Virus record (IMG/VR): IMGVR_UViG_2778261064_000025
Direction: 5' to 3' (one strand)
Length of the DNA stretch: 18,722 nucleotides
From: a virus
Taxonomy: Duplodnaviria > Heunggongvirae > Uroviricota > Caudoviricetes
In this document: piece by piece, positions 1 through 17,165 of the stretch
Position numbering within the stretch: position 1 is the first letter of the stretch
Layout of the letters: each line of letters begins with the position of its first letter
Made by a program: the position numbers and the translations under genes
Notes under the pieces: model-generated
What the model was told of the DNA's origin: nothing
The model's input: only the letters and a program-made list of their open reading frames with translations
Databases searched by the model: none

Positions 1-170
1 ATGATGCAACAGGACTGGCATTCCGCCGACATTATTGCGGTGCTGAAAAAGCGGGGAACGCCTCTGGCGGCACAGAGAAAAACTCATTGCGGAAGCGCTG
101 TAAATATCGCCAGAAATCATCTGGTCCTCAAGGTACTTTGATAGCAAAGGCAAGCTGGCTGGTTCAGTCC
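1..170 (+). pseudogene. Ner/Nlp(SfsB)-family DNA-binding protein gene remnant, frameshifted
   Basis: Frame-1 translation MMQQDWHSADIIAVLKKRGTPLAA matches the N-terminal signature of Ner/Nlp proteins as I recall it (DWH.ADII.GL.K.G). Frame 1 stops at 139-141; further Ner-like similarity appears only in shifted frames (frame 2 PEIIWSSRYFD, frame 3 GPQGTLIAKA). No search run. Confidence 0.4.
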
Positions 171-341
171 GGAGTCTCTCTTCTTGCACTTAAAGAGATG
201 GGAGGATGGGAAACTCTCAAAAAGGTTCAGAGATACGCTCACCTTTCAGCCGGGCATCTCACCGAGCACGCAAGCAAAATCGGCACGATCATAAGTCGCA
301 ATGGCACAAATACGGCACAGGAGGAAGCGTGGTGTATTTAA
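150..341 (+). pseudogene. Tyrosine integrase 3'-terminal fragment (lambdoid-type), no N-terminal domain
   Basis: Frame-3 translation SWLVQSGVSLLALKEMGGWETLKKVQRYAHLSAGHLTEHASKIG... carries the conserved C-terminal region of lambdoid tyrosine recombinases (GGW ... RYAHL with the catalytic Tyr). Upstream in the same frame there is no integrase-like sequence; it merges into the Ner-like remnant. Stop at 339-341. Confidence 0.6.
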
Positions 342-444
342 ATATGGGGTAACTACTTGATTTAAATGGTGCGATAATAGGAAAAAAACAAACAATAAAA
401 ATACATTGATATATAAAGATATTTTCACGTTACATCTTTGGAGA

Positions 445-466
445 TACCCCCAAAAGTACCCCCAAA
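445..466. repeat. Tandem direct repeat TACCCCCAAA x2 (445-454, 457-466)
   Basis: Read directly from the sequence; function unknown. Confidence 0.5.
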
Positions 467-594
467 CAATTTTCTCTCACCACCATTTGCACATAAAGCA
501 GCCATGTACAACTGGTAGTTGAACAGGCGGGTAGACCGTTCGTTCAGTAAATACCTGATATTTCCGCCAACGAGAAATTGCGTTGGCTGGCAGA

Positions 595-608
595 GTGCAA
601 ATTTGCAC
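595..608. repeat. Perfect 14-bp palindrome GTGCAAATTTGCAC
   Basis: Read directly from the sequence, in an AT-rich intergenic stretch downstream of the integrase fragment and of the PerC-like gene. Confidence 0.5.
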
Positions 609-724
609 GATGACCTAACCCATTGATTCTTTCGAAAACCTGCAATGCAGGAAGCCGGATAACACCATTTTTATAGCTCCGATCCCTTCAAAGTGAGGGG
701 TAATTTGCCAAAACAGAGAGAGCA

Positions 725-1012
725 TTACTGTCTCTGGCAATCTTTATCACGATAACGCCTGAAGTACCCTCTCGCTTCCTCATCCATACCAAGAGCCGAA
801 TGAGTCCGCTTAACTGCCTGTCTTAAATCTCCGAATCTGTCTGTAGTTGCTGGTGGGCGTGCCGCCTTACGGATACATTCAGAGCGTCTGTTTGCTGCAT
901 GTTCACGTTCTTTATCGCCATCTGCCAGCATCATGACTTCTGCCCATCGTGCGGCAGCTCTCCGGTATAGCCCTTTTGACTCCAGTTCTTCAGCTTTCCT
1001 GTCCCTTATCAT
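725..1012 (-). CDS. PerC-family transcriptional regulator-like protein (95 aa)
   Basis: ORF track 725..1012. The N-terminus MIRDRKAEELESKGLYRRAAARWAEVM resembles the PerC-family pattern (AE.LE..GL.RRAA.RW) as I recall it from prophage/island-encoded PerC/Pch homologues. Confidence 0.5.
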   Translation of the reverse strand: MIRDRKAEELESKGLYRRAAARWAEVMMLADGDKEREHAANRRSECIRKAARPPATTDRFGDLRQAVKRTHSALGMDEEARGYFRRYRDKDCQRQ

Positions 1013-1048
1013 TTCTGCCTCTCAGATTATATAGATAAGCAAAAAGGT

Positions 1049-1169
1049 GTTGGTTCAGTTGGTTCAGTTGGTTCAATTTGTAAAGATCGTTGTTTTTATT
1101 GTGTTTTTTCTGAAATATTGAACCAACATCAACTCATTTTGAACCAACACAGCCCAGCTCTGAACCAAC
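1049..1169. repeat. Iteron array L: GTTGGTTCA x3 in tandem (1049-1075) plus inverted TGAACCAAC x3 at 1119, 1140, 1161 (21-bp phasing)
   Basis: Counted directly in the sequence. The same 9-mer family recurs in mirrored arrangement at 9509-9619. Confidence 0.75.
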
Positions 1170-1222
1170 AACACAGCGATAGCTTTGTGATTGGTCCGTT
1201 ATTTTCTGGCTGATATTTGAGC

Positions 1223-1253
1223 GTATAACAGTGTTATACAGTGGTATACTGTA
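1223..1253. promoter_or_regulatory. Adjacent palindromes GTATAACA-G-TGTTATAC (1223-1239) and TACAGT-GGTAT-ACTGTA (1237-1253), candidate operator upstream of the 1272 gene
   Basis: Inverted repeats read from the sequence, 20-50 bp upstream of the ORF start. No clean -35/-10 could be assigned. Confidence 0.35.
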
Positions 1254-1271
1254 TGGATATTACTCACTGAT

Positions 1272-1712
1272 ATGGTCTTTGCAATGAGCAAATCTAATCT
1301 GGTCGCGTTCCGCATCCCATCTGAATTGCAGGATGAGTTTAATCGGTCTGTTCTCGCTTCTGGAGGGGATAAAACCTCCTGGCTTGTTGATGCGATTCGC
1401 ATGAAGCTGGGACAGCCGGAAAAGTCTATTGATTCACGAATGCTTGGGCTGGTGGAGCGCATGGAAAAAGCCGCTGCGTCGCTTATTGCCGGAAAGCCGA
1501 ACATCCCACCAAAGCCATATAACGAAACGGCAGTTATAAAGATCATTGCCGATACCATCCGACAGGGATTTGATAATGGGCGTGTGATAGCGGAACGGCT
1601 CAATGAAGCAGGCTACCAAACAAAAGCTGGTAAAGCGTGGGATAAAGACATTTACAGCGCGTGGAAGCGTCAGGGTAACAATATTAAAAGAATCAATACG
1701 CTGCTTCAGTAA
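1272..1712 (+). CDS. Hypothetical DNA-binding protein (146 aa), possible ribbon-helix-helix N-terminus; alternative start at 1284 (MSKSNL)
   Basis: ORF track. The N-terminal segment VAFRIPSELQDEF...SWLVDAIRMKLG looks like a beta-strand plus helices of CopG/Arc-type proteins. The C-terminal IAERLNEAGYQTKAGKAWDKDIYSAWKR resembles recombinase-domain HTH segments. No obvious Shine-Dalgarno. The antisense ORF 1199..1603 looks like low-complexity junk. Confidence 0.5.
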   Translation: MVFAMSKSNLVAFRIPSELQDEFNRSVLASGGDKTSWLVDAIRMKLGQPEKSIDSRMLGLVERMEKAAASLIAGKPNIPPKPYNETAVIKIIADTIRQGFDNGRVIAERLNEAGYQTKAGKAWDKDIYSAWKRQGNNIKRINTLLQ

Positions 1713-1741
1713 TTGATCAGTGTATAAATGATATTTATCGC

Positions 1742-2764
1742 TCAATCGCTCCCTTTCCGCCCTTCAGCTACAGGGTCGTTGTCGGCGATAACAAAACCTA
1801 AGTCCTGAGAGAATCTCTCTCGTGGGAATCCTTTAGCAGGTAAACCCATTGAATCATATCCACATCCGGGAACATTTGGTTTAGAGTCAATAAGGTCTGC
1901 AATTTGCCGAAGCCATGTTGATCCCGGACCAAGTCGTTTAACTAAGTACCAGATAATACAGATCGCGCTAAAAATCCTCTCGCAACTCTCTGGATGGAGA
2001 TTAAGTCCGTCAAAGTATTCATTATCCGGTACTGGAACTCGGGGATGCTTTCTATTCCATATTCTGGAATGGTGAGCGCAACGATTCCTTATGAGATTAA
2101 GGCACTTCAACCATTTTGCAAATGTCTGCTTATTATCAATGCCAAAACGACGTATAATTTTCCCCTGCATATGACCATTAAGCATCGCATAATATTTAGA
2201 CATCTGACCAAAATCCCAGGTCTCCACCGCCACCCAAAATGGAATCTCCTTGCCTTGGCTTCGATGCCATTCAATACAGTCATCTCTGCTTTCGTCTAAT
2301 TTTACTTTTTGCTTATACACCCAATGCTCGAAGGCAGATGAGAATTTTGGATTAATGTATTTTGATGACATGTAGGCAAGTGGATCATTGCGACCAACCT
2401 CATGCGCGATGACTGAACGAACATGAATCTCTATTCTTTCGATAGCATCAATCATCAAAAGACGCAGTTTTTTGTCAAAAAGATATAGATCGTACGTCTT
2501 CTCGAAACTGGTACCAGCAAGAAATCGGTCTGTTCTGTACGAAAGACCTTTATCTGTTGTCGCAATAATTCTTGATGGGTACCAAAAACCTGACAATCGA
2601 TAATATCCAACCTGCAACAGCTTACGTATCGCACGATTTCGATCATTGATAATCATGCCACGTTCAAGTAGCAATCCTAGCAATTCGTGATAGTCCTTAT
2701 GAGGCTTTGCGGCAATCATAGTGGCAAAACAAAAGATAATAAAAGGCCCGACCGTGAAACTCAC
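1742..2764 (-). CDS. Abi_2 family (AbiD/AbiF-like) abortive-infection protein; start uncertain (GTG at 2764 or ATG at 2719)
   Basis: ORF track 340 aa. Contains KPHKDYHELLGLLLERGMII...YYRLSGFWYP and RNRCAHHSRIWNR, matching the Abi_2 family signature as I recall it. Size fits AbiD/F proteins. Confidence 0.7.
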   Translation of the reverse strand: MSFTVGPFIIFCFATMIAAKPHKDYHELLGLLLERGMIINDRNRAIRKLLQVGYYRLSGFWYPSRIIATTDKGLSYRTDRFLAGTSFEKTYDLYLFDKKLRLLMIDAIERIEIHVRSVIAHEVGRNDPLAYMSSKYINPKFSSAFEHWVYKQKVKLDESRDDCIEWHRSQGKEIPFWVAVETWDFGQMSKYYAMLNGHMQGKIIRRFGIDNKQTFAKWLKCLNLIRNRCAHHSRIWNRKHPRVPVPDNEYFDGLNLHPESCERIFSAICIIWYLVKRLGPGSTWLRQIADLIDSKPNVPGCGYDSMGLPAKGFPRERFSQDLGFVIADNDPVAEGRKGSD

Positions 2765-2828
2765 ATGCCTGAAATCGGCGGCGGAGAAACAGAGGATCGG
2801 GCTCGGTTGCCTGTAACTCTATCCGAAG

Positions 2829-2931
2829 TTATCCACATGTCAATGCACAGTTACTTAGGAAACTAACATAGGTACTATCACCACTCACGAAAAACCACTA
2901 TATGTGGTTTTTATTCATATCGTTATCCACT
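2829..2931. promoter_or_regulatory. Two DnaA-box-like 9-mers (TTATCCACA 2829-2837; TTATCCACT 2923-2931) flanking a hairpin AAAACCAC-tatat-GTGGTTTT (2893-2913)
   Basis: First 9-mer matches the DnaA-box consensus TTATCCACA exactly, second has one mismatch. The hairpin is followed by a T-run. All read from the sequence; function inferred. Confidence 0.3.
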
Positions 2932-3096
2932 ACAGGCTGTGTCAATAACTTTTACCTATTAATTGGGTAATTTCTACATTTTCCTATGCTGGCTAGTTTC
3001 TCTACTGAAAAGTTGGCACTCCTTAATCGCTTTTCGGTTAATACTATCGGTTTTCATATTGCCAGCAGCATACGCCATCCGATAATTTCTATGCTA

Positions 3097-3475
3097 CGCG
3101 CGCGTACTTGTCGCAAAATATCAGGCAAAGGCCAGATTCAGAAAGTCGTGATAACCACCAGCACAACATGAGAGGTCATGTAACGCGATTTATCACACCA
3201 GATACATGTGATTAGTGTACCCGCATAAAACATCGTCATAGCGCGTCCTGTGCGCATATACGCCGATAATCAACACATCACCACCACTCTGACTTATGTA
3301 GAGAACAGTTTTATGGTACTCCCCTCCATCGTGCGCGTACTGGTCGGACGTAGTTGCAAAATTTTTTGCAACTGATACCCCTCGCGCGCGTACTTGTCTC
3401 GAAATTGGTGTTTTGCTGTGGCAGTGATATCAGAAAAATCTTCCTGTTTCACATAAAGCGGATATGCGCGTACTG
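3097..3475. repeat. Four direct copies of GCGCGTACT (3100-3108, 3333-3341, 3386-3394, 3466-3474); copies 1 and 3 extend to ~20 nt (CGCGCGCGTACTTGTC.C.AAAT)
   Basis: Read from the sequence. The motif falls in different codon phases of the overlapping ORFs, so it is conserved at DNA level rather than protein level. Confidence 0.55.
3353..3372. repeat. 20-bp AT-rich palindrome GTTGCAAAA-TT-TTTTGCAAC
   Basis: Perfect inverted repeat read from the sequence, lying between repeat copies 2 and 3. Confidence 0.5.
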
Positions 3476-3589
3476 TAACGGCCCCATCAACTGGGAGCGG
3501 ATTTGAAATCCCGACCCAAGCTATGTACCAAATGCCATGTCTTGGATATATGATGATTGCCATTCTAAACAACGCTAAAGGGGGTTGGT

Positions 3590-4204
3590 GTGAGCAGAAA
3601 AGATACTAAAGAATTGCTAACTATCTGCATGGTGTACTTTTCAATTTATTTTTGTGCATACATGATAGTCCCAGATGAGTTTGAACATGGCAGTATTATT
3701 TATTCCATAACATTCTATTTTTTAGAGCTAACACCAATTTTGGCTATCCTTTTGGCAATACATATTTATTTTTCCTTAAAAAAAGAATCGACTAATTGGG
3801 AGAAGGTATGGAGAGACAGAGGATTTCTAACATCACCTAAAGATGATGCATATGAGAGTGATTTTTCTGACTTTATAACAAACTACTACTCCAGCGAACA
3901 ATTCAAAAATAGACTGTCTGATGTTTGGGAAACAGCAATGTATTCCATAGGGATTATATTATTGATACTTACTGGTATTGCTCAATATGTTTTTAACATT
4001 GACTTATCATTAAATCCTGAAAATTTAATATCGCCATTGATTTTTGGTGAGATATTGATCTTCTCATTCGGAATTTTCTTGAGTGTTGTTCTCTGCTCAT
4101 TATGCAAGCTACTGACTAACAGGTATCCAGGTGAAGCAAGGAGAGCAAGAAAGGCAAATCCATATTATCTTTTATTTCCTAATGGAGACAGCAGAGATAT
4201 CTAA
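3590..4204 (+). CDS. AT-rich multi-pass membrane protein (204 aa), unknown function
   Basis: ORF track. GTG start preceded by GGGGG about 6 nt upstream. Several hydrophobic helices (e.g. LLTICMVYFSIYFCAYMIV, LTPILAILLAIHIYF, AMYSIGIILLILTGIAQYVF, ILIFSFGIFLSVVLCSLC). Visibly lower GC than flanking genes. Convergent with the 701-aa gene. Confidence 0.6.
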   Translation: MSRKDTKELLTICMVYFSIYFCAYMIVPDEFEHGSIIYSITFYFLELTPILAILLAIHIYFSLKKESTNWEKVWRDRGFLTSPKDDAYESDFSDFITNYYSSEQFKNRLSDVWETAMYSIGIILLILTGIAQYVFNIDLSLNPENLISPLIFGEILIFSFGIFLSVVLCSLCKLLTNRYPGEARRARKANPYYLLFPNGDSRDI

Positions 4205-4223
4205 GCCATCCATGGCTAACCAG

Positions 4224-6329
4224 TTATTGAGCTTCTTTTTGTGATGCCTGTGCGACTCTGGTGAGCGATTGTGTGACCGTACTGATCGCTCTGTCATATG
4301 CTGTGCTACCTTTTGGCGTATTTGCCAGACGTAACAAGGCATTTCGTATAACAGGGCTTTCGTATGCCTTCGCTGCTCCGCCTACGGCACCAGCAGCAGG
4401 AACAACAAACGCAGCCGTTTTTAGCATCCCCGCTAATACTGCTGCGTTTATGATGCCACCACCAACTAACAAACCATAAAGCTGCTGACCATTTAAGTTT
4501 TGAACGTTCGCTTTTGCCGCGTGTCTTGTATCGTTGAGGTATTTAATAACGCCGTCCAGTTCCTTTCCATGTACGCCTTTAAAGAAAGTTGCTGATTGCT
4601 TCCTGTTCCGGTGTAACGCATTAATAAACTTCTCAACACTGATATTTCCAGACGGATCAGTCGCCTTATCTACAGCATTCTGAACTATGGCTGCTCGTGC
4701 GTTTTGCCTACCATTGTCATCCAGAAGCCTGTAAAGCTGAGAACGTTCTGATGGGTTTTGGCTAAAAACGAGTTTTGTTACATCCTCAGGCGTGGCCTTG
4801 CCGCTGGCTATTGCCTTTTGAACGCGCGTTCTTCCCATCATGTCATTAAATTTAGACCATGAGCGATCAACCCTTGCCATATTAATGGCTTCGTCTGCTC
4901 CAAGATTTTTGGCTACGGCTTTTTTCATATCCGCCGTATATGCCTTGTAGATAATATCGCTGGCTTTCTGGAGCGTATCTTTATCAACAGTGTCAGATGA
5001 CGCCATAAATCGCTTTCGAAGATCGGTTCTGTTTTCCCTCGCCAGACGCAGGTCATTTGGTCCGCTGGTGATATCGTCTTTAAATTGCTGCAAGACTTTT
5101 ACCGCGGCTCTATCCTGAGATTTGCCCGGGCGGCTTAACACGGCAATCTGATTGTCGATAGCTTTTACCGTGTTTGAGAGATCGACAGGGGTATCCCCCA
5201 TAGCGTCAATTATGCGGTTATATCGCTTTCCTGCTGCCTCAATGAATTTTTGTTGCCCTTTAGTCGCAGATTCATAAAGCTGTTTATCAGAAATGCCACC
5301 CAGACCATCGCTAAATGTTCTGACTAAATTTTCTCGTGCTTGTTGTTGATTCAGCCGATTCTTACCGGTTCCAAAAAAAGGAACTCTTTCGCCTAATGTC
5401 TGAGCCTGACTCTGCATAAAGGTTTTATCTTTTAGCATGTCACTGGTCATTAACGGCAGATTTCTTTCCGATGCAAAGTCGACAGCAGCCTTTGCTTCAG
5501 GCGACATATCACCACGAACAGCCCTCGAAACCGCACTCGCTGTATTTTCCAGCCCCTTACCAATACCACCAATGCCAGCAGAAATTACCGTTTGTAACGG
5601 ATCAATATCTTCTCCACCAGCAAGGCTAGTGGCTCCCTGTAGTGCTAAATCTGTAGCTGCTGATTTTCCTATGGCACCAAGCACCGTTCCAGCCCTGCCC
5701 GCTGGTGTAAACGCCAGCGCATTAGCCAGAAACGATGCCACGTCTTGCGGCGATAAACCCGGCTTGTTCAGAGCATAATCACCGGATGGCAGGGAAACGA
5801 TAGTGTTACCCTTCTCATCCTGCCTTAATTTCGCTCCCATGCTCTGAAGAATCTTTTCCTGAGATGCGTCAGAGCCGAAAAGTTGAGACCATCGAGCTTT
5901 TAGAGCATCCATGCTGAGTGAGGTTAACTCTGGGGCAAGGTCGACATTTTGCAGTCTCTCCATCTCTGGAGTCATTCGGCTTTCGCCTGTTATAGCATCG
6001 CGCATCGCAGCCCCAAGACTGGCTCCCTGTTCTGCTGAACGCTCAAGCCCCTCTCTTTGCTGAGTAGCTAACTTTGCATACCCTGACGCAAGAGAATTAT
6101 CAGATGATGTATGTTGAATATTTTGAGTTGCTGATTGGGATCGGTCTATTTCATTCGTTGATGGTAGTGGATAGGCAGCATAAAAAGCCTGCTTAGCCTG
6201 CTCTACACTTTCTCCGGCTTGCGGGGCCACGACTTCATTGAAGTATTGCTCCTGAGCCTGCGCTTTTTGTTCTGGTGCTAACGCCTGATACTGTGGAGAG
6301 GCGATAACATCTTTCCATGCTTTAGCCAT
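4224..6329 (-). CDS. Putative DNA-ejection (injection) protein, P22 gp16-like by size and position (701 aa)
   Basis: ORF track. Last gene of a four-gene translationally coupled operon (TAATG overlap at 6329). Ala/Gln-rich with a Gly-rich hydrophobic segment near the C-terminus (LYGLLVGGGIINAAVLAGML...). Assignment is by analogy to the P22 14-7-20-16 order; no search run. Confidence 0.5.
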   Translation of the reverse strand: MAKAWKDVIASPQYQALAPEQKAQAQEQYFNEVVAPQAGESVEQAKQAFYAAYPLPSTNEIDRSQSATQNIQHTSSDNSLASGYAKLATQQREGLERSAEQGASLGAAMRDAITGESRMTPEMERLQNVDLAPELTSLSMDALKARWSQLFGSDASQEKILQSMGAKLRQDEKGNTIVSLPSGDYALNKPGLSPQDVASFLANALAFTPAGRAGTVLGAIGKSAATDLALQGATSLAGGEDIDPLQTVISAGIGGIGKGLENTASAVSRAVRGDMSPEAKAAVDFASERNLPLMTSDMLKDKTFMQSQAQTLGERVPFFGTGKNRLNQQQARENLVRTFSDGLGGISDKQLYESATKGQQKFIEAAGKRYNRIIDAMGDTPVDLSNTVKAIDNQIAVLSRPGKSQDRAAVKVLQQFKDDITSGPNDLRLARENRTDLRKRFMASSDTVDKDTLQKASDIIYKAYTADMKKAVAKNLGADEAINMARVDRSWSKFNDMMGRTRVQKAIASGKATPEDVTKLVFSQNPSERSQLYRLLDDNGRQNARAAIVQNAVDKATDPSGNISVEKFINALHRNRKQSATFFKGVHGKELDGVIKYLNDTRHAAKANVQNLNGQQLYGLLVGGGIINAAVLAGMLKTAAFVVPAAGAVGGAAKAYESPVIRNALLRLANTPKGSTAYDRAISTVTQSLTRVAQASQKEAQ

Positions 6330-7750
6330 TAATCACCCCATAGTGAAGAAAAGTTACTGCTGGCTGCTGGCTGTGATACCTGCTCAGATTGCGGCAATGT
6401 CTGCGACGAAGAAGAAGTTCCTCTGTCAACTGCTGAAATAACCCGCAAAGCATCATAAGCTCGACCAGAAGCAGCTTTCAGCGAATTGAACTGGTTTTCC
6501 ATCTTCCGGCGCTTGGTATCAATGGTTTTTGTGGAATCACCAGGCTGAGGGAAATACATTTGATAATATTTGGACATTTCAGCTGGTACGATGGCTGCCC
6601 CTGTTTCCTGACGGAGTATTGCCATTATTGCGTCATTAGCATTAACAACGTATTGCTGTTCTGTTGGGCTGAGCGTTAAGTTAGCCAGCGTCCCATTACC
6701 CAAAGCATTATTAATGATCGCCACTCGCTGTGGGCTAAGCTGGTCTTTCAGTGTATCTATTGAATCAAGAGCATCCCTAACCCTGTATGCAAATCCAGCA
6801 GCTTTTTTAGCCCCTTCTGGCGACTTTTCCATGATCTTTTGGGCTGTTGGCAAAGCTATTGGACGAAACCCATCTCCAGATATTGGCTGGTTTAGTTTTC
6901 CCTGCTCTTCACTTCCGTCTGTGTAGTATTTTGTGACAGTGCCATCATCGTTTTCTCTAACACTCATTAATTTTTTGGCGTTTGTATTAATTCCAGCCGC
7001 TGCCGCAAATGCCGCCGCCCCCTCTGGATCCGCCTTTAACATTTGAGCGTACTGATTGTAATTCTGCATTGCTGCTGTTGGTGCATATGCTGACGTTAAC
7101 GCATTTGCTCGGCTAATATCCTGCCCTCTCGCCTGAAGTGCTTCGCCAGCCTGATTGCTGCGGATTGTTTCTGCCAACTTGCCACGCTCAATATCCCGAC
7201 CTTCCATTTGATCTTTGATATCGAAATACTTCTCATGACCGAGAGAAAACAGTGCCATACTACCAGCAAGCCGCTGGAACCCCTGTGGATCATTAACATG
7301 CATTTCGGCAACAGACTCAGGAGAAATTCCCAAGCGACGCATTTCATCTTCGTTATCTGCTATGAATTTTCCAAATGCCCCAGTTCCGAGCGAAGATGCG
7401 ATTTGAGCACTAGTCGCAAGATGACCAATAGAATTTCTCTGGTCGTCATCAATAAAGCCCATCCCTTTCTGAACGCTTTCAAATTCTTCTGGATACTCAG
7501 AAATAAGACTGCGCATTTTGTTTCTGTCTCCAGACTCAAAAGCCCCGGCATATGCTTTCTGAAACTCTGCTTTACGCTGTTGTTGACGTGCCGGCTGATT
7601 AATCTCAGCAACGCCTCTTAGCCCCTGTAGCGCCATTAAACCTACGTTTGGCTGCTGCTGATACTGCACAGGCTGAGGAACGGAAGAACGAGGAGCATTA
7701 TCATTTTGCGGTGCCATGCTAGGCAGCCCGCCAAGTTGCCATGTCGCCAT
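6329..7750 (-). CDS. Putative DNA-ejection protein, P22 gp20-like by size and position (473 aa)
   Basis: ORF track. TAATG start/stop overlaps at both ends. 473 aa compared with ~471 aa for P22 gp20 as I recall it. Gln-rich N-terminus. Confidence 0.5.
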   Translation of the reverse strand: MATWQLGGLPSMAPQNDNAPRSSVPQPVQYQQQPNVGLMALQGLRGVAEINQPARQQQRKAEFQKAYAGAFESGDRNKMRSLISEYPEEFESVQKGMGFIDDDQRNSIGHLATSAQIASSLGTGAFGKFIADNEDEMRRLGISPESVAEMHVNDPQGFQRLAGSMALFSLGHEKYFDIKDQMEGRDIERGKLAETIRSNQAGEALQARGQDISRANALTSAYAPTAAMQNYNQYAQMLKADPEGAAAFAAAAGINTNAKKLMSVRENDDGTVTKYYTDGSEEQGKLNQPISGDGFRPIALPTAQKIMEKSPEGAKKAAGFAYRVRDALDSIDTLKDQLSPQRVAIINNALGNGTLANLTLSPTEQQYVVNANDAIMAILRQETGAAIVPAEMSKYYQMYFPQPGDSTKTIDTKRRKMENQFNSLKAASGRAYDALRVISAVDRGTSSSSQTLPQSEQVSQPAASSNFSSLWGD

Positions 7751-8427
7751 TAGAATCCAAGCCCCCCAACAAGACCAATAAGCCCACCACCAATAGCGCC
7801 GGCCGCAGTTCCTATTCCAGGAACAACGGAACCAAGTTGCGCACCCGCTAAAGCGCCTGATGCTGCCCCACCAATACCACGCGCAAGACTGGATGGCTGC
7901 TGCGCCTGACCTGCACGAATAGCGCCAAGCCCCTGCAAGAGTTGTCCGGTATTATTGGCGTAGTTTTGCCCTGCCGTTGCCTGCCCTGATGCCGCATTCA
8001 TCCCGACATTTAGCAGGTTTCCATAATTTTGCATTTGCCCACTAAGCCAATTGTTATAAAGCATGGGCGCAATGGAAGATAACTGGTTACTGGTAGCTGT
8101 TGAGCCAAGCCCCCCGGTAGCTTCTGCTGAGACAAGGTTCTGATAACGGGCCTGATCTGCCTGTGTTTTATATAAACCAGAACCAAAGAAATCATTCGCG
8201 GCTTTATTCTGCCCTTCCAGAGTCATCAGTCCTTGTAGTTGTTGTAAAGCAGGCAATCCGACTTCTGCATACGGCTTGAGATTATTCATCACCGTATTCC
8301 ACTGCTCGCGCTGCAAATCAATTGCCTGCTGCTGGGCCTTCGCCTGAGCTTTAGAGGCACCACCATCACCGCCTTTTTCGTATACGGCACGATTGAGATG
8401 TTTATGAGCTATATGGGTAATTAACAT
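7750..8427 (-). CDS. Putative DNA-ejection protein, P22 gp7-like (225 aa)
   Basis: ORF track. N-terminal ...NRAVYEKGGDGGASKAQAKAQ resembles the P22 gp7 leader region (...PEKGGKGG...) as I recall it. C-terminal Gly-rich hydrophobic tail GIGTAAGAIGGGLIGLVGGLGF. 225 aa compared with 229 aa for gp7. Confidence 0.55.
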   Translation of the reverse strand: MLITHIAHKHLNRAVYEKGGDGGASKAQAKAQQQAIDLQREQWNTVMNNLKPYAEVGLPALQQLQGLMTLEGQNKAANDFFGSGLYKTQADQARYQNLVSAEATGGLGSTATSNQLSSIAPMLYNNWLSGQMQNYGNLLNVGMNAASGQATAGQNYANNTGQLLQGLGAIRAGQAQQPSSLARGIGGAASGALAGAQLGSVVPGIGTAAGAIGGGLIGLVGGLGF

Positions 8428-8882
8428 TCGCTGAATTCCTTATATTGTTGCCGAGTTAACTGATAAAGCGTTACGCCGACGGGTTTACCACATCTGATAT
8501 AAGCATCATCAAGGTGACCAACACGGGTAGCGCCAAGCAAACGGATAATTGCCCGTCCGTATTTCGTGGTGTCAGGAACCATAGTGATGCTGTTAAGGAA
8601 TGGTGAGTTTTCGAGAAGCCATTTGCAGAATAATCGATGTCCTTGCAGTGCATATTCACCACGGAATCCGGGGTCGTACACCGCATGGCATTCAACAACG
8701 CTATGCCAGAAGTTACGCACTTCATGAACGCCAGCCAGCACTAATCCTTCGTAGATGCCGAGATATACCGCATCAGGCTTGATGTAGTACGTGTGCCCCG
8801 GCTCAACAATATTTTCGGTATTGCCTGGCTCGTTAAGAAAGGCCTGTAATCGCACAGGGTTATCAATAAATTTTAGTTCCAT
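8421..8882 (-). CDS. Hypothetical protein (153 aa), position and size consistent with P22 gp14-like / DUF2824-type protein
   Basis: ORF track. First large gene of the operon; its stop overlaps the start of the next gene (ATGTTAA). Family assignment is from memory only. Confidence 0.45.
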   Translation of the reverse strand: MELKFIDNPVRLQAFLNEPGNTENIVEPGHTYYIKPDAVYLGIYEGLVLAGVHEVRNFWHSVVECHAVYDPGFRGEYALQGHRLFCKWLLENSPFLNSITMVPDTTKYGRAIIRLLGATRVGHLDDAYIRCGKPVGVTLYQLTRQQYKEFSEC

Positions 8883-8898
8883 GCGATGCCATCCATTT

Positions 8899-9060
8899 TC
8901 ACATACAGCCTGCCAGCGCCTTATCTATTAACCCTCGTGCAATTTCATGCAGAGTTGGCGCTACTCCAATTCCTGATTTTTTACGCTGCTCTTCCTGAAT
9001 TTTCTTTATCGCTTCCATTTGCTTCTCACTTATCAATACCGGCTTTACTGAAATAGCCAT
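8899..9060 (-). CDS. Small ORF (53 aa) MAISVKPVLISEKQMEAIKKIQEEQRKKSGIGVAPTLHEIARGLIDKALAGCM, possible small DNA-binding protein
   Basis: Hand-translated; below the 60-aa cutoff of the ORF track. ATG at 9058-9060 on the minus strand, preceded by GGGGG (plus-strand CCCCC 9065-9069). Ends 16 nt before the 153-aa gene. Confidence 0.45.
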   Translation of the reverse strand: MAISVKPVLISEKQMEAIKKIQEEQRKKSGIGVAPTLHEIARGLIDKALAGCM

Positions 9061-9073
9061 AACGCCCCCTTAG

Positions 9074-9099
9074 AACTGTATAAAACAACAGTTATTATA
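9074..9099 (-). promoter_or_regulatory. LexA-box-like CTGT-ATAAAACA-ACAG (9076-9091) immediately downstream of a perfect minus-strand -10 TATAAT (9094-9099)
   Basis: Read from the sequence. Matches the CTGT-N8-ACAG SOS-box pattern with an AT-rich spacer. The -35 is weak (TGAATA-like), so the promoter call is tentative. Confidence 0.4.
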
Positions 9100-9155
9100 G
9101 TTTCACAAATCGCAATATTCATCATCGTAATTGCAAAATATGAAACAAATAGCAC

Positions 9156-9187
9156 AAAAAAATGCCACCGCTCAGTAGCTGGTGGCA
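9156..9187 (-). terminator. Rho-independent terminator on the minus strand (stem TGCCACC/GGTGGCA with inner GCT/AGC pairs, followed by a 7-nt U-run)
   Basis: Plus-strand 9156-9187 reads AAAAAAA-TGCCACC-GCTCAGTAGCT-GGTGGCA. On the minus strand this is a hairpin followed by TTTTTTT. Lies downstream of the primase gene and iteron array, upstream of the 9094-9099 promoter. Confidence 0.55.
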
Positions 9188-9508
9188 TCGTTCTGTGTGT
9201 CAGGTTTTGACAGGTTTTTTATGGACTCTAAAAACTATATTTATGGTGTCGCATTACTCTTCACGGCAGGCGCTTTTCAGTTCTGCCCTTGCTTCTGGCT
9301 CCATTGGTAATTTGATTCGCGATCAGCTATGCGGATGGTTTGCTGAACAGGCATAACAACTTCTCAGAGGCTGTTTTCTGAACTACGAAAATTTCGTAGT
9401 GCTCACTTTCAAAAACGTCACGCCCTTGTACACAGGATTTTACGAAAGTCTCGTAAAACACTCTCTGATGCCAGCCAGGTGTTGTGCGCATCAATTCAGT
9501 CACATTGT

Positions 9509-9619
9509 GTTGGTTCAAAATACCGTGTTGTTGGTTCAGTGTTGGTTCAATAAAAAGAATAAAATCCTTATAAAACAATACTCTTTACAAATTGAACCAA
9601 CTGAACCAACTGAACCAAC
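9509..9619. repeat. Iteron array R: GTTGGTTCA at 9509, 9530, 9541 plus TGAACCAAC x3 in tandem (9593-9619); mirror image of array L
   Basis: Counted directly in the sequence. Immediately downstream of the primase-helicase stop (9645). Confidence 0.75.
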
Positions 9620-9644
9620 ACCTTTTCTACGCACATGAAGAAGC

Positions 9645-12404
9645 TCATTCTTCAGATGAGTTATAATCTCCTGGCTGGTAATTGAGTACATAAACGTTTA
9701 TTTGTCGTCCCTGAATACGTGGTGATTTTCTTTGGTATCCACGACCGCTGTTTGGTGGGGTTAGCATCCCGGCTTTTTTCAACACTTCAGCAAACTGTTT
9801 TGCGTTGAAACCACATGCGATCTCCTTTTCAAATGTGGCCGGGAATGTGTAGAAAATCATTGGGCTTTCGTCATGTTCTCCACGCTGACGGTATCCGGCT
9901 AAATCTTTGATGGGCAAATCTGCCGGGCTGTATGGAAATGGTGCAAAACGGCTAAGCCCATAGGCATTAAGAAATGCCTCCGTTTGTTCAATAATCTGCT
10001 GATGCTCTTTGTTACCTGTGCCGAACTCGCGCAACCATGCGTTATAGCTGTGCTGTATCGCATCACGGCATGTCTGAGCATCCCAGCCTGTTACAACCTC
10101 GCCTAACAACAATGCGGCCTCCAGAATGGCAAATCGCGCGGCTACACGGTGAACCTGCTCACCATAATCGGATGGGATCAGGCTTCTCCATCTGCTTTCG
10201 CAGTCGCGAACGGTTTTAATAGCCTGTTGCTGGTGGTCTGCCAGCCATTTAATCCACTCACGCCCGGACGCGCCGTGGTGATGCTGGTAAGCGTCTTTCA
10301 GTGCGTCTGCGTGCTGTTTTCCGTTCTGGTAATCGTGAAAGCGTACTGCTTTACTCAACGGAATATTCAGCAGTCGCACCAGTTGCCCGGCTTTGGTTTT
10401 TCGCCCGGAAGTAGCGATAAATGTTTCTAAATCCATTTCTCCGGTGCTGATTGCCACTGTACGCCAGCGTTTTAGATCCCGGTTTCCACCATCTTTAGCG
10501 CCTTGCAGTTTCCCTACACCGTTAAATAACGCATAGGCAGACTGTGAAACGCTGACAGGATCAGCGCCCTGACCAACTTCATCAAGCGGCATTAGTCCGT
10601 CATTGTGGGCGGCGGCCTCATTTGCCAGCCCCAGCGCGGTTCCGTACCACGTCAGCCGCAGTAAATCAGGGTTGCCGTATAAGCTGCTCGCCACGTTTGC
10701 CGTGGTGGTCTTACCTGCGCTCGACTGCTCATAGAAATGAATGCCGAACCCGTCAGCGCCCACCAGCCCAATCAATGGCGCTGCCAGTGCTGCGCCGATC
10801 CCGGTCATCATTGAATAGTTACCAAAGGCCAGACGCGCCACGTTATCACGCCAGCTTTTCGCGCTCCCTGAGACGGTATATCCGGCTGCGGCTGAGCTTC
10901 TCCCGCTGAACAGCACAGGATTTTCAGGTGTTCCGATGATTTCCCCATCAGGCATGATGTACGCTCCGCATTGCCAGCCAGTGGCATGAGCAACACGCCA
11001 CAATTCACGAGAGCCACTGCGTTGTAGCCAGTCTGCCAGTATTGCTCTGAGGCTGCTTTTGGTCGTGACATTTACCCCACCAGCTTTAAGTGTGCGCCAT
11101 CCTTCACGTTCACCAATATCAGCCAGTGGAATGGCAGCGGTTGTCGGCGTTTCAGAACCAAACGACAGCCAGCGAAGAATGAGATACTGGTCTTTATCGT
11201 CTCTGCCAGTACCGATAACGCTTAACGGAGAACATAACCAGCTTTCGTTATTGATGATTTCTCCACTCTGGCTGTCAGCTCTCGGAGATACCCAATAAAT
11301 ACCATCCTCGCGGCTTTCTATTCTTGGTTTCAGTGGGTCGGTATCCATAACCTTAAAATCGCTTCCCTCAATGGTCTGTGGCTCCTGTTTCACGCCATTA
11401 CCCTGTGGTTGGTACATTGACTTATTGAACGCTTCTGTGGCGCATTTAATGCCGTGTTTTTGGTGGTAATCATTCCAGTCTGCTTTGTGATCTGTCGGGG
11501 GTAATGCCACCCATCCAGAAACAGATAAAGCTGCTTTTTCTGCTGCTATTCTCCCCGTGTTTTGTCTTCCTTCGCTGTGGTCGTTATCCGCAGCAATGAT
11601 GATTTGTGCTGAAGGAAATTTATCCCGCAGTACCTGGGCGACATATAACAGGTTCCCGGCATCAATCGCCGCCACTGTCAGCGCCTCTGGACGAATTAAA
11701 TGGGCAGATAATGCCGTTGCCAGCCCTTCTGCGATTAAGATGCTCTGTGTTGTTTCTGGTGCGTTTATGGCGTGATATGCCCCCCGCTTTGCTGAACCTG
11801 TCAGGAGTCTTTTTTCACCATGTGAGGTAATAGTCTGTGCTGCTGTGACTGCGCCGGATTTATCCACCAGCGCCAGCAACAGAGATCCATCGGGCAACAC
11901 GGGGAATGTAAAATCACCTACCCCTTTCGCAACCAGATAATCAGATTTGCCGTTTACAGCCTTTCTGCGCATGTCATCAAACTGACGGGAAAACGTATCC
12001 CGTCTTTGTTGTTCGTCCTTCTCTGCCCTTTTCAGGCGCTCCTGTTCGCGTCGCTGGCGCTCGGTTTCCAGTTGTTCCCGTTTCTGGCTGGTGGCTTCTG
12101 GTGTTTCCGTTGTCCGGTAATCAATACCCAGAACATCAGCGGCAAGAAGCGCCGCCTCTGTTGTGTCGCAGTTATTTACGCGTTTAATTAAATCCAGCCC
12201 ATCACCAGCGCCGCACTGATTACAGATGAAGCTACCGCGCCCGTTGTCATCGAACCGGAATCGATCTTTGCCCCCACATGCAGGGCAGGGAGCATGACGG
12301 CGCGGAGAGTCAGGGACATTTATGTTCAGGCAGCCCAGCACATGAGGCCAGTTGTTTTCAGACGCACTGATAACCTGACGGATAAGATCAATGTTTCGCA
12401 TCAC
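9645..12404 (-). CDS. Primase-helicase, P4 alpha-like (zinc-binding primase N-terminus + TOPRIM + P-loop NTPase), 919 aa
   Basis: ORF track. N-terminal CPACGG...FICNQCGAG zinc-finger pairs, TOPRIM-like ILIAEGLATALS ... IIIAADNDHSEG, Walker-A-like SSAGKTT in the C-terminal half. Domain order typical of P4 alpha / D5-type island primases. Confidence 0.85.
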   Translation of the reverse strand: MMRNIDLIRQVISASENNWPHVLGCLNINVPDSPRRHAPCPACGGKDRFRFDDNGRGSFICNQCGAGDGLDLIKRVNNCDTTEAALLAADVLGIDYRTTETPEATSQKREQLETERQRREQERLKRAEKDEQQRRDTFSRQFDDMRRKAVNGKSDYLVAKGVGDFTFPVLPDGSLLLALVDKSGAVTAAQTITSHGEKRLLTGSAKRGAYHAINAPETTQSILIAEGLATALSAHLIRPEALTVAAIDAGNLLYVAQVLRDKFPSAQIIIAADNDHSEGRQNTGRIAAEKAALSVSGWVALPPTDHKADWNDYHQKHGIKCATEAFNKSMYQPQGNGVKQEPQTIEGSDFKVMDTDPLKPRIESREDGIYWVSPRADSQSGEIINNESWLCSPLSVIGTGRDDKDQYLILRWLSFGSETPTTAAIPLADIGEREGWRTLKAGGVNVTTKSSLRAILADWLQRSGSRELWRVAHATGWQCGAYIMPDGEIIGTPENPVLFSGRSSAAAGYTVSGSAKSWRDNVARLAFGNYSMMTGIGAALAAPLIGLVGADGFGIHFYEQSSAGKTTTANVASSLYGNPDLLRLTWYGTALGLANEAAAHNDGLMPLDEVGQGADPVSVSQSAYALFNGVGKLQGAKDGGNRDLKRWRTVAISTGEMDLETFIATSGRKTKAGQLVRLLNIPLSKAVRFHDYQNGKQHADALKDAYQHHHGASGREWIKWLADHQQQAIKTVRDCESRWRSLIPSDYGEQVHRVAARFAILEAALLLGEVVTGWDAQTCRDAIQHSYNAWLREFGTGNKEHQQIIEQTEAFLNAYGLSRFAPFPYSPADLPIKDLAGYRQRGEHDESPMIFYTFPATFEKEIACGFNAKQFAEVLKKAGMLTPPNSGRGYQRKSPRIQGRQINVYVLNYQPGDYNSSEE

Positions 12405-12759
12405 CGTACCCCACGTGGTCTATAGCGTTTGCGATATGGCTAACCAGCATCTGCCACTTGGTTATTCCGTAATCAGTCAGCATGCCATCATTGTTTAGCC
12501 ACATATCAAATTCAGCGGTTGTCGCAAGTTTCCACTTATCGCCGTGGACAGTCCTCATTGCTGGGTACATGAATGCGCAAATCAGATCACAAACATCTGA
12601 CGGCTTCAGAGATGTAGTAATGGTGCGTCCCTCTGGCGTCTGAATTGCCATTTTCTCTTCACCAGTAGAATGAAGGTTATGAATCCACACAGCACCAGCA
12701 ATCTTTGCCACCTGCTCTCCGATTGCGGAGCTAAGCGCCATTTCTGCATTTTCACGCAT
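12388..12759 (-). CDS. Hypothetical protein (123 aa)
   Basis: ORF track. ATG at 12757-12759 preceded by GGGAGG. 8-nt overlap with the upstream gene's stop; its own stop overlaps the primase start. Confidence 0.55.
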   Translation of the reverse strand: MRENAEMALSSAIGEQVAKIAGAVWIHNLHSTGEEKMAIQTPEGRTITTSLKPSDVCDLICAFMYPAMRTVHGDKWKLATTAEFDMWLNNDGMLTDYGITKWQMLVSHIANAIDHVGYGDAKH

Positions 12760-13093
12760 GAGAACCTCCCGCTACAGTTGCGCCCATGTCATTAACCATG
12801 CTTTGCCATATCTCACGCCCGACGTCAGTCAATCCGTCCTTAGTGACGCAACGCTCAAGAAGCTCGATCCCCACGGTTTCCCACTGCGGGTAGAACACTT
12901 TCATGGCTGCCAGTGTGTAGCTATCGATCAGGCTGCGAACGCCTTTTACTCCATTGACGATTTCCACACGTACGGCCTCGCCGTCCGCATCAACCATGAA
13001 ATAGTCCCCGCCGCTGGTGGAGGTAATGTGGTTATACAGTGCCGACGCATACTTATTTGCCAGCGCATTCAGTCGGAAATTTTTAGTAATCAT
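12752..13093 (-). CDS. Hypothetical protein (113 aa)
   Basis: ORF track. ATG at 13091-13093 with an upstream GAGG/GGAG; packed in the overlapping small-gene operon. Confidence 0.55.
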   Translation of the reverse strand: MITKNFRLNALANKYASALYNHITSTSGGDYFMVDADGEAVRVEIVNGVKGVRSLIDSYTLAAMKVFYPQWETVGIELLERCVTKDGLTDVGREIWQSMVNDMGATVAGGSHA

Positions 13094-13103
13094 GGCTCCA
13101 TCC

Positions 13104-13706
13104 TCAGTGCGTCACTGGTTCCGCTGGCATGCCGTTTTCATTCAGTTCAGCTATAAAGCTGTTGTGAAGTTCAGCAAGCGTTTCACGACCAAATGGAGTC
13201 AGTGCTCCTTGTTCCACATCCATCATGGCTCTGTAGAAAATGATGGCGCGTTCTGTGCCAGACTCGATGCCAAAACGTTCTATCATCGCGCCCTCAATGT
13301 TGTTTGCCATAGCGAGGCGCTCTGCTACTGGATACAGCGGCATGGCGACGATGCCGTTGGAATAAACAGCCACTTCGGAAGGATTGCCAGTATCATCAAT
13401 GATGCTGACAGTGCCGTTTTCCTCTCTCATTTCCAGCATGAATACTGTTGCGATCAGCCATCTCCACATAATGACGTTATGCTGTGATGTGTAATCGAAA
13501 TATCCCTGGTTGCCGCCATCGGCTATAGCGAGATGTATTGACATGCCTTCATCTGGTTTATCGTCATAATCCCCGGCATCCAGACGATTTACGGCATCAA
13601 TATATGAGACGGTCTCAACGCGTTCTGTCATGCCATCGTTGCTGCGGTGCATGATGTTTACGCCGTCAGGCGTTGCTTCTGCATGGAAAGTTAAGAAATT
13701 ATTCAT
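13104..13706 (-). CDS. Hypothetical protein (~200 aa from ATG 13704-13706; ORF track extends to 13811)
   Basis: The internal ATG at 13704-13706 is preceded by AGGCGAGG and overlaps the upstream gene's stop by 8 nt, matching the coupling pattern of its neighbours. The longer 235-aa reading is possible. Confidence 0.5.
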   Translation of the reverse strand: MNNFLTFHAEATPDGVNIMHRSNDGMTERVETVSYIDAVNRLDAGDYDDKPDEGMSIHLAIADGGNQGYFDYTSQHNVIMWRWLIATVFMLEMREENGTVSIIDDTGNPSEVAVYSNGIVAMPLYPVAERLAMANNIEGAMIERFGIESGTERAIIFYRAMMDVEQGALTPFGRETLAELHNSFIAELNENGMPAEPVTH

Positions 13707-13920
13707 GTTTCGCCTCGCCTGAATGATTCTGTAACTCATATTTGCCCAACAATTCGTCTGCTTCCTGAATAGCTTCTGGTACGCCATTGAGCAGTGACAT
13801 AACCGCGCCAATCATTAACTTGTCTCTGTTGCTGGGGCTGGCCCCTTCAAGCCAGAACCCTAAAACAGTCTGAACCTGTTCGATGCGACATTGCGCTTCA
13901 ATGAGCTGGATGTTGGTCAT
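13699..13920 (-). CDS. Hypothetical small protein (73 aa)
   Basis: ORF track. ATGA start/stop overlap with the upstream gene at 13917-13920. Confidence 0.5.
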   Translation of the reverse strand: MTNIQLIEAQCRIEQVQTVLGFWLEGASPSNRDKLMIGAVMSLLNGVPEAIQEADELLGKYELQNHSGEAKHE

Positions 13921-14180
13921 TTCGCACTCTCCGCATCGATTAAACTGATATCTATCAGAGAGGTAACTTTTTGTAGCCAGCTAGTGATTACTGTCGCCTG
14001 TTCCCCTCCCACCGATGGAAGAATCTCATTCATCACATGAACCAGACCTGTGCGCGCTCTGGTAAGCCGTTCAGTCGTGCGATCTGCAAGAGTGAATGTG
14101 TCTGGATATGGCTCTTCACGGCTCAGCAATGATTCAATTTCCAGCTCACACGGATGACGATAAATTAAGTTGATATTCAT
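13917..14180 (-). CDS. Hypothetical small protein (87 aa)
   Basis: ORF track. ATG at 14178-14180 preceded by GGGGG; ATGA overlap with the upstream gene. Confidence 0.55.
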   Translation of the reverse strand: MNINLIYRHPCELEIESLLSREEPYPDTFTLADRTTERLTRARTGLVHVMNEILPSVGGEQATVITSWLQKVTSLIDISLIDAESAK

Positions 14181-14371
14181 TTTTCACCCCCAAGAATTAC
14201 CAGCTCTGCACGGGCATCGTTAACCAAAGATGAGTACGCTTTAATCGCATCCACGACATCAGTAGCGTCCATTTCTTCAGCCGAAAGACTGACAGCAACC
14301 AGGACAGCCGCTGCTTGCTCGATTAATTGAAGTGCGGACGTAAGGCGAGGGGTATTAATTGAGTTATTCAT
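14177..14371 (-). CDS. Hypothetical small protein (64 aa)
   Basis: ORF track. ATG at 14369-14371 preceded by GGGGG; 8-nt overlap with the upstream ORF's stop. Confidence 0.55.
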   Translation of the reverse strand: MNNSINTPRLTSALQLIEQAAAVLVAVSLSAEEMDATDVVDAIKAYSSLVNDARAELVILGGEK

Positions 14372-15431
14372 TGGTTTCCCCCGTTTTTACTGGCATTTCG
14401 CCACCTTCCAGCAGGAAATGAACGTCACGAACGGCGAGATCCAATATCGCGAGTAACGCCTTCAGTCTTTCGTCTCGTGAGGGAGAGTTGCTCACCAGAA
14501 TGTCGTTAATCACTTCTGTCAGTGTGATGATCTGGCTTGTGCGTTCGAGGGGATCCATATGCACATCGTAGGTTTTAATCATGTGCCACCTCCATGCGGA
14601 TACGACCAGCAAAAAAGCAGACGTGATCGCGCACCAGAGAACGGCGAGCATCGCGTTCAGACTCGGCAGCAATATGATGAATTTTGGCGGTAATTGTCGG
14701 GCAATCGCGGCGAACTGCGGCGATAATCCAGATAAATTGCGGTTTTTGGGTAGGGGTAGTAGCCAGCATGTGGCAGCCTCCATTCGATAGCATGTAACGC
14801 TACCACCGGAAACGCCAATTTCGCTGGTGGTAGCCCAGACAGGGTTGGCGTAACCGGCTCGAATGGATACCGGCGCTTCCGAAGAAGCCCCTGCCTGAGC
14901 CACCATTGATTGACAAAGGCGCTGGATTATACACCAACGCCCAAAAAATGGGTGAGTCAGACCTACGACATAAAAAAAGACGCTCGGCGCGTCATATGTC
15001 GCCATTCGATTTACCAGGACGCCAATCCCGGCACCCGTTTTATGAGGTGCCTTATAACCATAAACCGTGTTGCCGCATAACGGCAAGCTCTTTTTTATGG
15101 ACTCCGAAAACTCACTATTGGAAGAACCAGAAGCACAGTACATCGCGCTCATTTCGTTAACGTCACGCGCGTGGACGAAGGTTTTTGTGGAGTCACTACG
15201 CGAGCAGAGAAAGCCATCTACGACCAGAAATTCTCTGGCGCAGCCGCTGACCTTCTCAACGCTAACACCATCGACCGTAATTTCTGACATAGTTAAGGCA
15301 TCCGCTCCTACCACCAGCAAATGATAAACTTTGCTTGTATCTGCTGTATTAATGCCTGACTTTGCTGTCATATTGCTGGATTTTGGCGACATACCAGCCA
15401 GTGAAAATGTCTTCTTCTGGGCGGTTAGCAT
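14364..15431 (-). CDS. Long ORF (355 codons), hypothetical; may instead be two genes, with a separate 72-aa product starting at ATG 14580-14582
   Basis: Continuous stop-free frame of 1068 nt. Start at 15429-15431 preceded by GGAGG and overlapping the DUF4222-like stop (ATGCTAA). A second in-frame ATG at 14580-14582 has its own GGAGG 6-7 nt upstream. The middle section translates to unconvincing sequence. Confidence 0.35.
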
Positions 15432-15607
15432 TTGTTAACCTCCGCGAACTCCTTCATGAAACGTGCCAGCGGTTGTACGCATGGCGATTGATACCCGTCG
15501 CGATAAAACGTCACTCGGTTGTGAGACACGCTTTCGACAGTAACGAGTGCTCCGTGGGCATCTTTGTAGCGTTTTTGAGGTTGTGGTGTTCCTGTCGGCT
15601 TAAACAT
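15425..15607 (-). CDS. Small conserved prophage protein, DUF4222-like (60 aa from ATG 15605-15607; ORF track extends to 15694)
   Basis: ATG at 15605-15607 immediately follows the upstream stop (15600-15602) and is preceded by GGAGG. Sequence MFKPTGTPQPQKRYKDAHGALVTVESVSHNRVTFYRDGYQSPCVQPLARF fits my recollection of the DUF4222 pattern. Confidence 0.5.
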   Translation of the reverse strand: MFKPTGTPQPQKRYKDAHGALVTVESVSHNRVTFYRDGYQSPCVQPLARFMKEFAEVNKC

Positions 15608-16433: not shown

Positions 16434-16445
16434 TTTCAGTCTCCG

Positions 16446-16877
16446 TTAGGCGGCGTTAAACGCGTCCGGGTAGAGTTTCAGAATGTCGGCAATTTCCTGC
16501 TGAGAAAGTCCGTTGTGATCATTTATGTTCGCAAGATGGTTAATATGAGTGATCACTTTCAGAACATCACCACGGCAGGAGAAACGGTAGCGAAGGTGTG
16601 TTCCGATACCATCAGGATTCTTTTCGTCGATACGCTCCAGAGTGATTCCGAGCTGGCGTTCTAACTCTGTTGCATAGTTACGACCAGAAGACAGACGGCA
16701 GTAGCGAAGAATGTCATTTTCTGTCCATCCCTCTATACCAGTACGCAGCATATAGACTCGGGCACGATGCTTTTTCGGCGTGCGCTTTGGTGCTTGAAGG
16801 GATTTTGTCAGGGGCGTAACATCAGATACGCGAATATCTGAATTAGCCGCCTGTAATGGGCGGTTTTTCTTTTCCAT
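16446..16877 (-). CDS. Hypothetical protein (143 aa), basic N-terminus
   Basis: ORF track. Start overlaps the AlpA stop by 1 nt (coupled). No family recognised. Confidence 0.55.
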   Translation of the reverse strand: MEKKNRPLQAANSDIRVSDVTPLTKSLQAPKRTPKKHRARVYMLRTGIEGWTENDILRYCRLSSGRNYATELERQLGITLERIDEKNPDGIGTHLRYRFSCRGDVLKVITHINHLANINDHNGLSQQEIADILKLYPDAFNAA

Positions 16878-17080: not shown

Positions 17081-17165
17081 TTATTAATATCCTGTACTAA
17101 TGACGCAATAACCCCCTCCTGCAACGAATGGCGAGAGTTTTATTTGCGTCAAATGTCGAATACGC

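Follow-up and report, generated by a model that had tools for sequence, protein, structure and literature searches.

A Probable Deletion Scar at the thrW Integration Hotspot of Escherichia coli, Joining a Ner-like Pseudogene to the 3′ Remnant of a Lambdoid Integrase

Introduction

The first 341 nt of the stretch of viral DNA analysed here (the window, 18,722 nt in full; IMG/VR record IMGVR_UViG_2778261064_000025) begin like the gene of a Ner/Nlp regulator and end like that of a lambdoid-type integrase. This raises the question of whether the window opens with a fusion gene or with the remains of a rearrangement. A sequence-only reading had favoured a deletion or recombination junction at an island boundary, flanked by the debris of a degraded prophage and, just downstream (342–720), by the att site of the truncated integrase. 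The chromosomal gene thrW is a recognised hotspot for islands and integration in E. coli (PMC7545054), and tandem integration of SfX and SfI at this gene has been demonstrated experimentally (PMC3306764). Our comparison of the window with intact homologues and complete genomes leads us to conclude, with a probability of roughly 90%, that positions 1–352 are a non-functional deletion scar at the thrW hotspot, next to proA. The features discussed are collected in Table 1.

Table 1. Features of the window, with the sequence comparisons or remarks that define them.
Feature	Position	Strand	Basis or remark
Ner/Nlp (SfsB)-like HTH_35 regulator pseudogene	1–152	+	Pfam, NCBIfam, blastx, DNA alignment
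46-codon ORF, by-product of deletion	1–141	+	frame 1; first 23 family residues only
84-codon chimeric ORF across the junction	87–341	+	TTG start; mechanical ORF
Junction, GGCAA microhomology	149–153	+	comparison with HK75 and MB53 integrases and intact Ner genes
3′ remnant of thrW-specific lambdoid tyrosine integrase, HK75/SfX/mEpX2 type	150–352	+	codons 320–386 of 386
Spacer, integrase stop to tRNA 3′ end	353–366		14 nt; same in MB53 prophage and insert-free strains
TGGTGCGATAATAGGA, 3′-terminal 17 nt of thrW (tRNA-Thr CGU) minus one C	367–382	-	alignment to thrW of E200086, ST131 and K-12 ptwF
P4-like satellite/island inserted in thrW	383–18722		~18.3 kb; outside the scar
PerC	725–1012	-	
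146-aa ORF	1272–1712	+	
Abi_2	1742–2764		
SieA-like ORF	3590–4204		
P22-type ejection genes	4224–8882		
gp16-like ejection gene	4224–6329		
gp20 ejection gene	6329–7750		
gp7 ejection gene	7750–8427		
gp14-like DUF2824 ejection gene	8421–8882		
TOPRIM/DUF927 primase	9645–12404		
355-codon ORF	14364–15431		RefSeq 'ash family protein' in related strains
C4 antisense RNA	14823–14910	-	Rfam, 79.5 bits
isrK RNA	14973–15050	-	Rfam, 67.1 bits
AntA/B	15600–16433		
P4-type integrase	17508–18722	-	

Results

The frame 1 ORF, which starts with MMQQDWHSADIIAVLKKRGT, matches the Pfam HTH_35 profile over positions 1–20 of 75 (E = 2.6e-5; its 24.5 bits lie slightly below the cut-off of 25 bits, the piece being a fragment) and the NCBIfam SfsB model (E = 5.6e-7), which bears out the proposed Ner/Nlp-like start. 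Intact 84-aa homologues occur in E. coli RM12581 and A41 (HTH_35, E = 2.2e-29), and blastx aligns the remnant to them with E = 3.4e-14; positions 1–69 correspond in frame 1 to homologue residues 1–23, and positions 59–151 correspond in frame 2 to residues 42–72, so that the C-terminal half survives. Positions 1–152 are accordingly homologous to the Ner/Nlp (SfsB) HTH_35 regulators (phage Mu Ner, E. coli SfsB), with which they share the N-terminal DWHxADIIAxLKKRGT motif and the C-terminal EKLIAxAL..PEIIWxSRY motif, and they lack an intact frame of about 75–90 aa with a helix-turn-helix. The sequence-only reading had described the gene as frameshifted and stopping after 46 codons. The 46-codon frame stands, but the lesion is an internal deletion of 65 nt, visible as a 65-column gap in the DNA alignment to the intact genes, which shifts the frame and takes out residues 24–41, the helix-turn-helix itself. 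The remnant further differs from the family in an in-frame stop within the surviving frame 2 part (TAA, 101–103) and in the loss of the final 12 codons at the junction. RefSeq names the 46-aa product a 'helix-turn-helix domain-containing protein' (WP_001424131.1); it is a gene fragment. The string IAKA, found in frame 3 just 5′ of the junction, resembles the IIAKALG motif of Nlp and was rejected as a coincidence, the true Ner C-terminal half lying in frame 2.

In RM12581 and A41 the intact Ner-like gene overlaps an ORF of about 155 aa, forming a two-gene module in which the overlap is ATGA. The ~155-aa ORF upstream of the Ner-like gene (L002, 19534–20004; L010, 3414–3875) has no Pfam, PHROG or NCBIfam match, and it is still intact beside the scar in hundreds of genomes.

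From position 150, frame 3 reads ASWLVQSGVSLLALKEMGGWETLKKVQRYAHLSAGHL... (ASWLVQSGVSLLALKEMGGWETLKKVQRYAHLSAGHLTEHASKIG...) and runs to a TAA at 339–341. This segment matches the last 34 positions of the Pfam Phage_integrase profile (137–170 of 172; E = 8.8e-5, a score slightly under the gathering threshold for what is a fragment sequence) and is 93.2% identical in amino acids to residues 320–378 of the 386-aa integrase of HK75 (blastx, E = 2.8e-35); the same identity is obtained with the integrases of SfX, mEpX2, HK542, HK446, HK75, mEp043, mEp213 and ECP1 (tblastn, E = 7e-29). Both similarities claimed for positions 1–341, to Ner-like regulators and to the C-terminal region of integrases, hence survive alignment. 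The stub is homologous to the PF00589 catalytic domain. It begins at A320, right after HDLRHTW, with 319 of the 386 codons absent, and contains neither the complete catalytic set nor the N-terminal DNA-binding domains. Assigning roles by analogy with lambda Int, we take the only active-site residues retained to be the Trp of GGW and the catalytic Tyr of RYAHL, with Arg-Lys-His-Arg, four of the six active-site residues, missing. A 1-nt deletion near 325/326 causes the premature TAA, the natural stop of the integrase being at 350–352. As the sequence-only reading had noted, the N-terminus is gone: none was found upstream of the scar in strains whose upstream DNA is visible, and in identical loci PGAP labels the integrase part a pseudogene ('frameshifted; incomplete; missing N-terminus'). 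The TTG start of the 84-aa ORF falls within out-of-frame Ner sequence, and the integrase-derived part of this ORF matches PHROG 35951, a family without an assigned function (E = 2e-34). With the helix-turn-helix deleted from the Ner remnant, and the N-terminal domains and four of six active-site residues deleted from the stub, neither product would be expected to work.

The two halves meet at GGCAA, a pentanucleotide present in both parents, the Ner-like gene (CAGGGCAAC) and the integrase gene (TGGGCAAGC). Identity of the window to the HK75 and MB53 integrase genes begins at GGCAAGCTGG, where the Ner parents read CAGGGCAAC; comparison with the intact homologous genes therefore maps the breakpoint to somewhere inside these 5 nt (149–153), and joins Ner-like codon 72 to integrase codon 320. 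The proposed deletion or recombination junction is thus located, and a 5-nt microhomology of this kind would be typical of an illegitimate deletion. A search for the exact junction (as a 37-nt pattern) in species-representative genomes, one per species, gave no matches.

Downstream of the natural integrase stop, 14 nt lead to the 3′ end of thrW. Identity to this end directly past the integrase stop marks 367–382 as the putative remnant att core of the dead integrase and, at the same time, as the left junction of the satellite, in agreement with the predicted location of the att site. Only 16 nt of the ~46-nt core are left here because the satellite inserted into thrW and displaced the rest past the right end of the window. 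For the same reason thrW is absent from the window, in which a tRNA gene search detected none. No second copy of the att core lies within the window, which ends at the start codon of the satellite integrase; in strain a15, which carries the same satellite, the second copy lies about 165 nt beyond that integrase.

The chromosomal context is provided by strains without the insert. In E200086 and eight more of the listed complete genomes, positions 1–366 recur with 100% identity, directly ahead of intact thrW-proA; diverged scar copies in ST131 (strain 81009) and ST2747 also abut intact thrW-proA. In MB53 the lambdoid prophage is complete, and 14 nt separate the end of its integrase from thrW, the position at which the window stub ends, so the suspected degraded prophage at the island boundary has an intact counterpart in the same place. 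The annotated attP sites of HK446 and mEp043 are thrW/ptwF-like, and the attP of HK75 contains 46 nt of thrW. The integrases of HK75, HK446, mEpX2, mEp043 and Shigella phage SfX (93% amino acid identity over codons 320–378) share with the stub its direction toward thrW, the 14-nt spacing and the att core sequence, whereas the stub has only the last 67 of 386 codons, carries a terminal frameshift and lacks any arm-binding or core-binding domain. On these grounds the stub belongs to the thrW-specific lambdoid type represented by HK75 and SfX.

The boundary of CP4-6 in K-12 is a relic of the same kind at the same locus: the equivalent of window positions 299–352 is kept as a 54-nt integrase tail, followed by the spacer and a 47-nt copy of the thrW 3′ part (the pseudo-tRNA ptwF) that adjoins the CP4-6 intF. 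In K-12 the cut falls at nt 299, and a yagP remnant takes the place that the Ner-like gene has in the window; the displaced tRNA piece is longer in K-12 because CP4-6 uses a longer core. The window likewise resembles tandem elements at tRNA genes, such as SfI and SfX or the vat island at thrW, where successive elements share the tRNA and each displaces the end of its predecessor together with a partial tRNA copy (PMC3306764). There is no difference in principle from such arrays; the older element has shrunk to a 200-nt integrase tail.

At least 80% of the length of the 341-nt scar was found in 801 of 5426 complete E. coli genomes, and nine complete genomes among the matches listed carry the identical 341 nt. 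An architecture this widespread could have spoken for a genuine fusion protein; what is shared, however, is a decaying pseudogene. In the ST131 allele, Ner codon 6 is a TGA and the catalytic Tyr codon is replaced by TAG; the related stubs of WP2 and CT30 show a 2-nt deletion and a TGA, with a further 29-nt deletion in WP2, so that stops and frameshifts leave no ORF conserved across the alleles. Scans of positions 1–1300 revealed no promoter-like sites or terminators and no Rfam matches. Positions 1–352 are best read as a scar and not as a gene for a conserved fusion protein, and the scar copies inspected include none away from thrW. Across species-representative loci with this integrase C-terminus, about 34 of 80 are 5′-truncated stubs (L015–L094), which mostly retain only the last 60–150 codons. 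Relics of this sort, integrase tails beside att sites, are common across Enterobacterales.

The two halves of the scar differ in their divergence. Between the window, ST131 and ST2747, at most 2 of 152 nt differ in the Ner part, whereas the integrase part differs by 0%, ~10% and ~30%, respectively (Fisher p = 2.6e-7 and 1.9e-13). Within the stub itself, WP2 and CT30 are 99% identical over 154–243 and only 48% identical over 244–352, where WP2 shares 90% identity with HK75 and CT30 shares 93% with ST2747; the two halves therefore cluster discordantly. In the stubs at thrW (154–352; loci L003, L006, L001 and L007), left halves track the left-hand context, and right halves are either HK75-like or of a second type common to ST2747 and CT30. 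Judging from these alignments, the tRNA-proximal parts of thrW stubs have evidently been exchanged for those of other integrase genes of the thrW type, most plausibly when stubs recombined with tandem prophages, a mechanism that we infer. The integrase part of ST2747 differs from nt 156 on, so homologous recombination could have replaced it only through a crossover or heteroduplex no more than ~14 nt from the junction, an unusual event.

From position 383 the window departs from the insert-free strains, and the element that starts there, ~18.3 kb in length, matches copies in other strains that adjoin other stubs. In a15 it is bounded by TGG TG(C)CGATAATAGGA repeats, reading TGGTG-CGATAATAGGA on the left and TGGTGCCGATAATAGGAGTCG... 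on the right, and the right att site and thrW belonging to the satellite of the window are predicted by analogy with that strain. The left junction (367–372) reads TGGTG-CG, with one C, in all three host backgrounds, whereas the right junction reads TGGTGCCG, which would place strand exchange within or immediately after AATGGTG. The satellite entered thrW after the scar had formed, and the two occur together in no complete E. coli genome of the collection.

Several other properties of the satellite are recorded here. The ejection-protein genes are seemingly unusual on such an element. The C4 and isrK immunity RNAs sit within the 355-codon ORF, the 5′ part of which is probably over-called. Between PerC and the 146-aa ORF, on opposite strands, positions 1047–1173 contain six copies of the 9-mer GTTGGTTCA, three direct (1049–1075) and three inverted as TGAACCAAC (1119–1169), which look like putative operator or iteron sites.

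Discussion

A history is proposed in which an old prophage at thrW would have decayed to a first stub on the yagU side, and a CP4-6-like island with ash, the 156-aa ORF and the Ner-like gene would have come to adjoin thrW. A lambdoid phage of the HK75/SfX type would then have integrated into thrW, with 14 nt separating its integrase gene from the 3′ end of the tRNA, before a single microhomology-mediated illegitimate deletion at GGCAA, running from Ner codon 72 to integrase codon 320, would have taken away virtually all of the prophage, along with the island's end and the att copy between them. A P4-like satellite would later have used the same tRNA, moving the scar and 16 nt of the tRNA 3′ end ~18.5 kb from the rest of thrW, and integrase genes of phages that came to thrW afterwards would have recombined with the stub and replaced part of it. 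Among the 5426 complete genomes none shows the state before the deletion, in which an intact Ner-like gene would lie by a thrW prophage: every inspected thrW copy of the upstream ORF and Ner-like gene in E. coli is already scarred, and intact Ner-like modules were found only at other loci, adjoining type VI secretion genes. With no pre-deletion genome found, the one-step deletion is something that we infer and do not observe.

Where the deletion took place can be argued from ST131, in which the order is yagU; a truncated small phage gene with the older integrase stub; an intF-like pseudogene; AbiE; hsdRMS; ash; the 156-aa ORF; Ner′|int′; and thrW. The island is therefore bracketed by the older stub and intF-like pseudogene on the left and by Ner′|int′, abutting intact thrW, on the right. 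As tRNA integration usually works, DNA by the 3′ end of an intact tRNA gene belongs to the most recently integrated element, and by this logic Ner′|int′ would be DNA of the newest arrival. The scar could thus have been made earlier, inside a mobile CP4-6-like island beside its attP, and been carried to thrW by IntF-type integration, which would also suit its presence in several lineages, among which the Ner part hardly varies. We consider such an origin unlikely, since no circular or elsewhere-located copy of the junction was found, species representatives contain none, and all inspected copies are at thrW; moreover, the stub is lambdoid and not of the IntF/P4 type, and would be without a role in such an island. 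Even then it is a dead scar, and the place of origin alone differs.

A further complication is a second junction, present in WP2, CT30 and ST131, in which the truncated small phage gene by yagU is joined to an integrase stub that begins at the same integrase nucleotide, 153/154 (L001, 6001; L007, 6001; L014, ~29440); ST131 carries both stubs in one genome, and blastx upstream of the yagU-side stub gave no integrase similarity. This recurrence could suggest that nt 153/154 is a mechanistic hotspot, for example through breakage where homology with an older resident stub ends, with new truncations templated at that position. We regard this as very unlikely. The partners differ: the left partner of the yagU-side stub is unrelated to the Ner-like gene. 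The left halves of the stubs at the two junctions (154–243) are only 81–85% identical, and the boundaries of the ~34 truncated stubs in the 80 species-representative loci fall at scattered positions between codons 57 and 324, without clustering at 320. At nt 153/154 the phage genomes have no mosaic boundary, and there is no exact Chi site (GCTGGCTGG is not one) or IS end at the cut. As stub lengths are skewed short, a chance match within 4 nt has a probability that we put, as a rough estimate, at ~2–3%. The analysis found no mechanism for the shared cut, and coincidence is its probable explanation. That the 84-codon or 46-codon ORF encodes a functional small protein, such as a fusion or an integrase-tail decoy, might be argued from the fact that both are open in the window, from the RefSeq CDS for the 46-aa ORF and from the PHROG 35951 match. 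The stops in ST131, the deletions and TGA in the WP2 and CT30 stubs, the deleted helix-turn-helix, the TTG start in out-of-frame Ner sequence and the lack of a promoter-like site in 1–1300 make this a highly improbable reading. An assembly or chimera artefact of the window has a negligible probability and is already refuted by the identical 341 nt in nine listed independent complete genomes and by the 801 genomes that share at least 80% of the scar.

The deletion scar at thrW is ordinary genome decay, already annotated pseudogene debris at a well-known tRNA hotspot. Its value lies mainly in annotation: it shows where the ~18.3 kb satellite truly borders the chromosome, with the left junction at 367–382, and it documents repeated integration and decay at thrW. 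We can also imagine, though we think it improbable, that a thrW stub serves as a homology anchor that recombines with incoming phage integrase genes, both curing tandem prophages and overwriting the stub. If true, the end of stub homology might set where later integrases are truncated, which would explain two unrelated junctions at nt 153/154. The mosaic stub is a small, concrete case of prophage relics trading sequence with later phages, which is expected biology.
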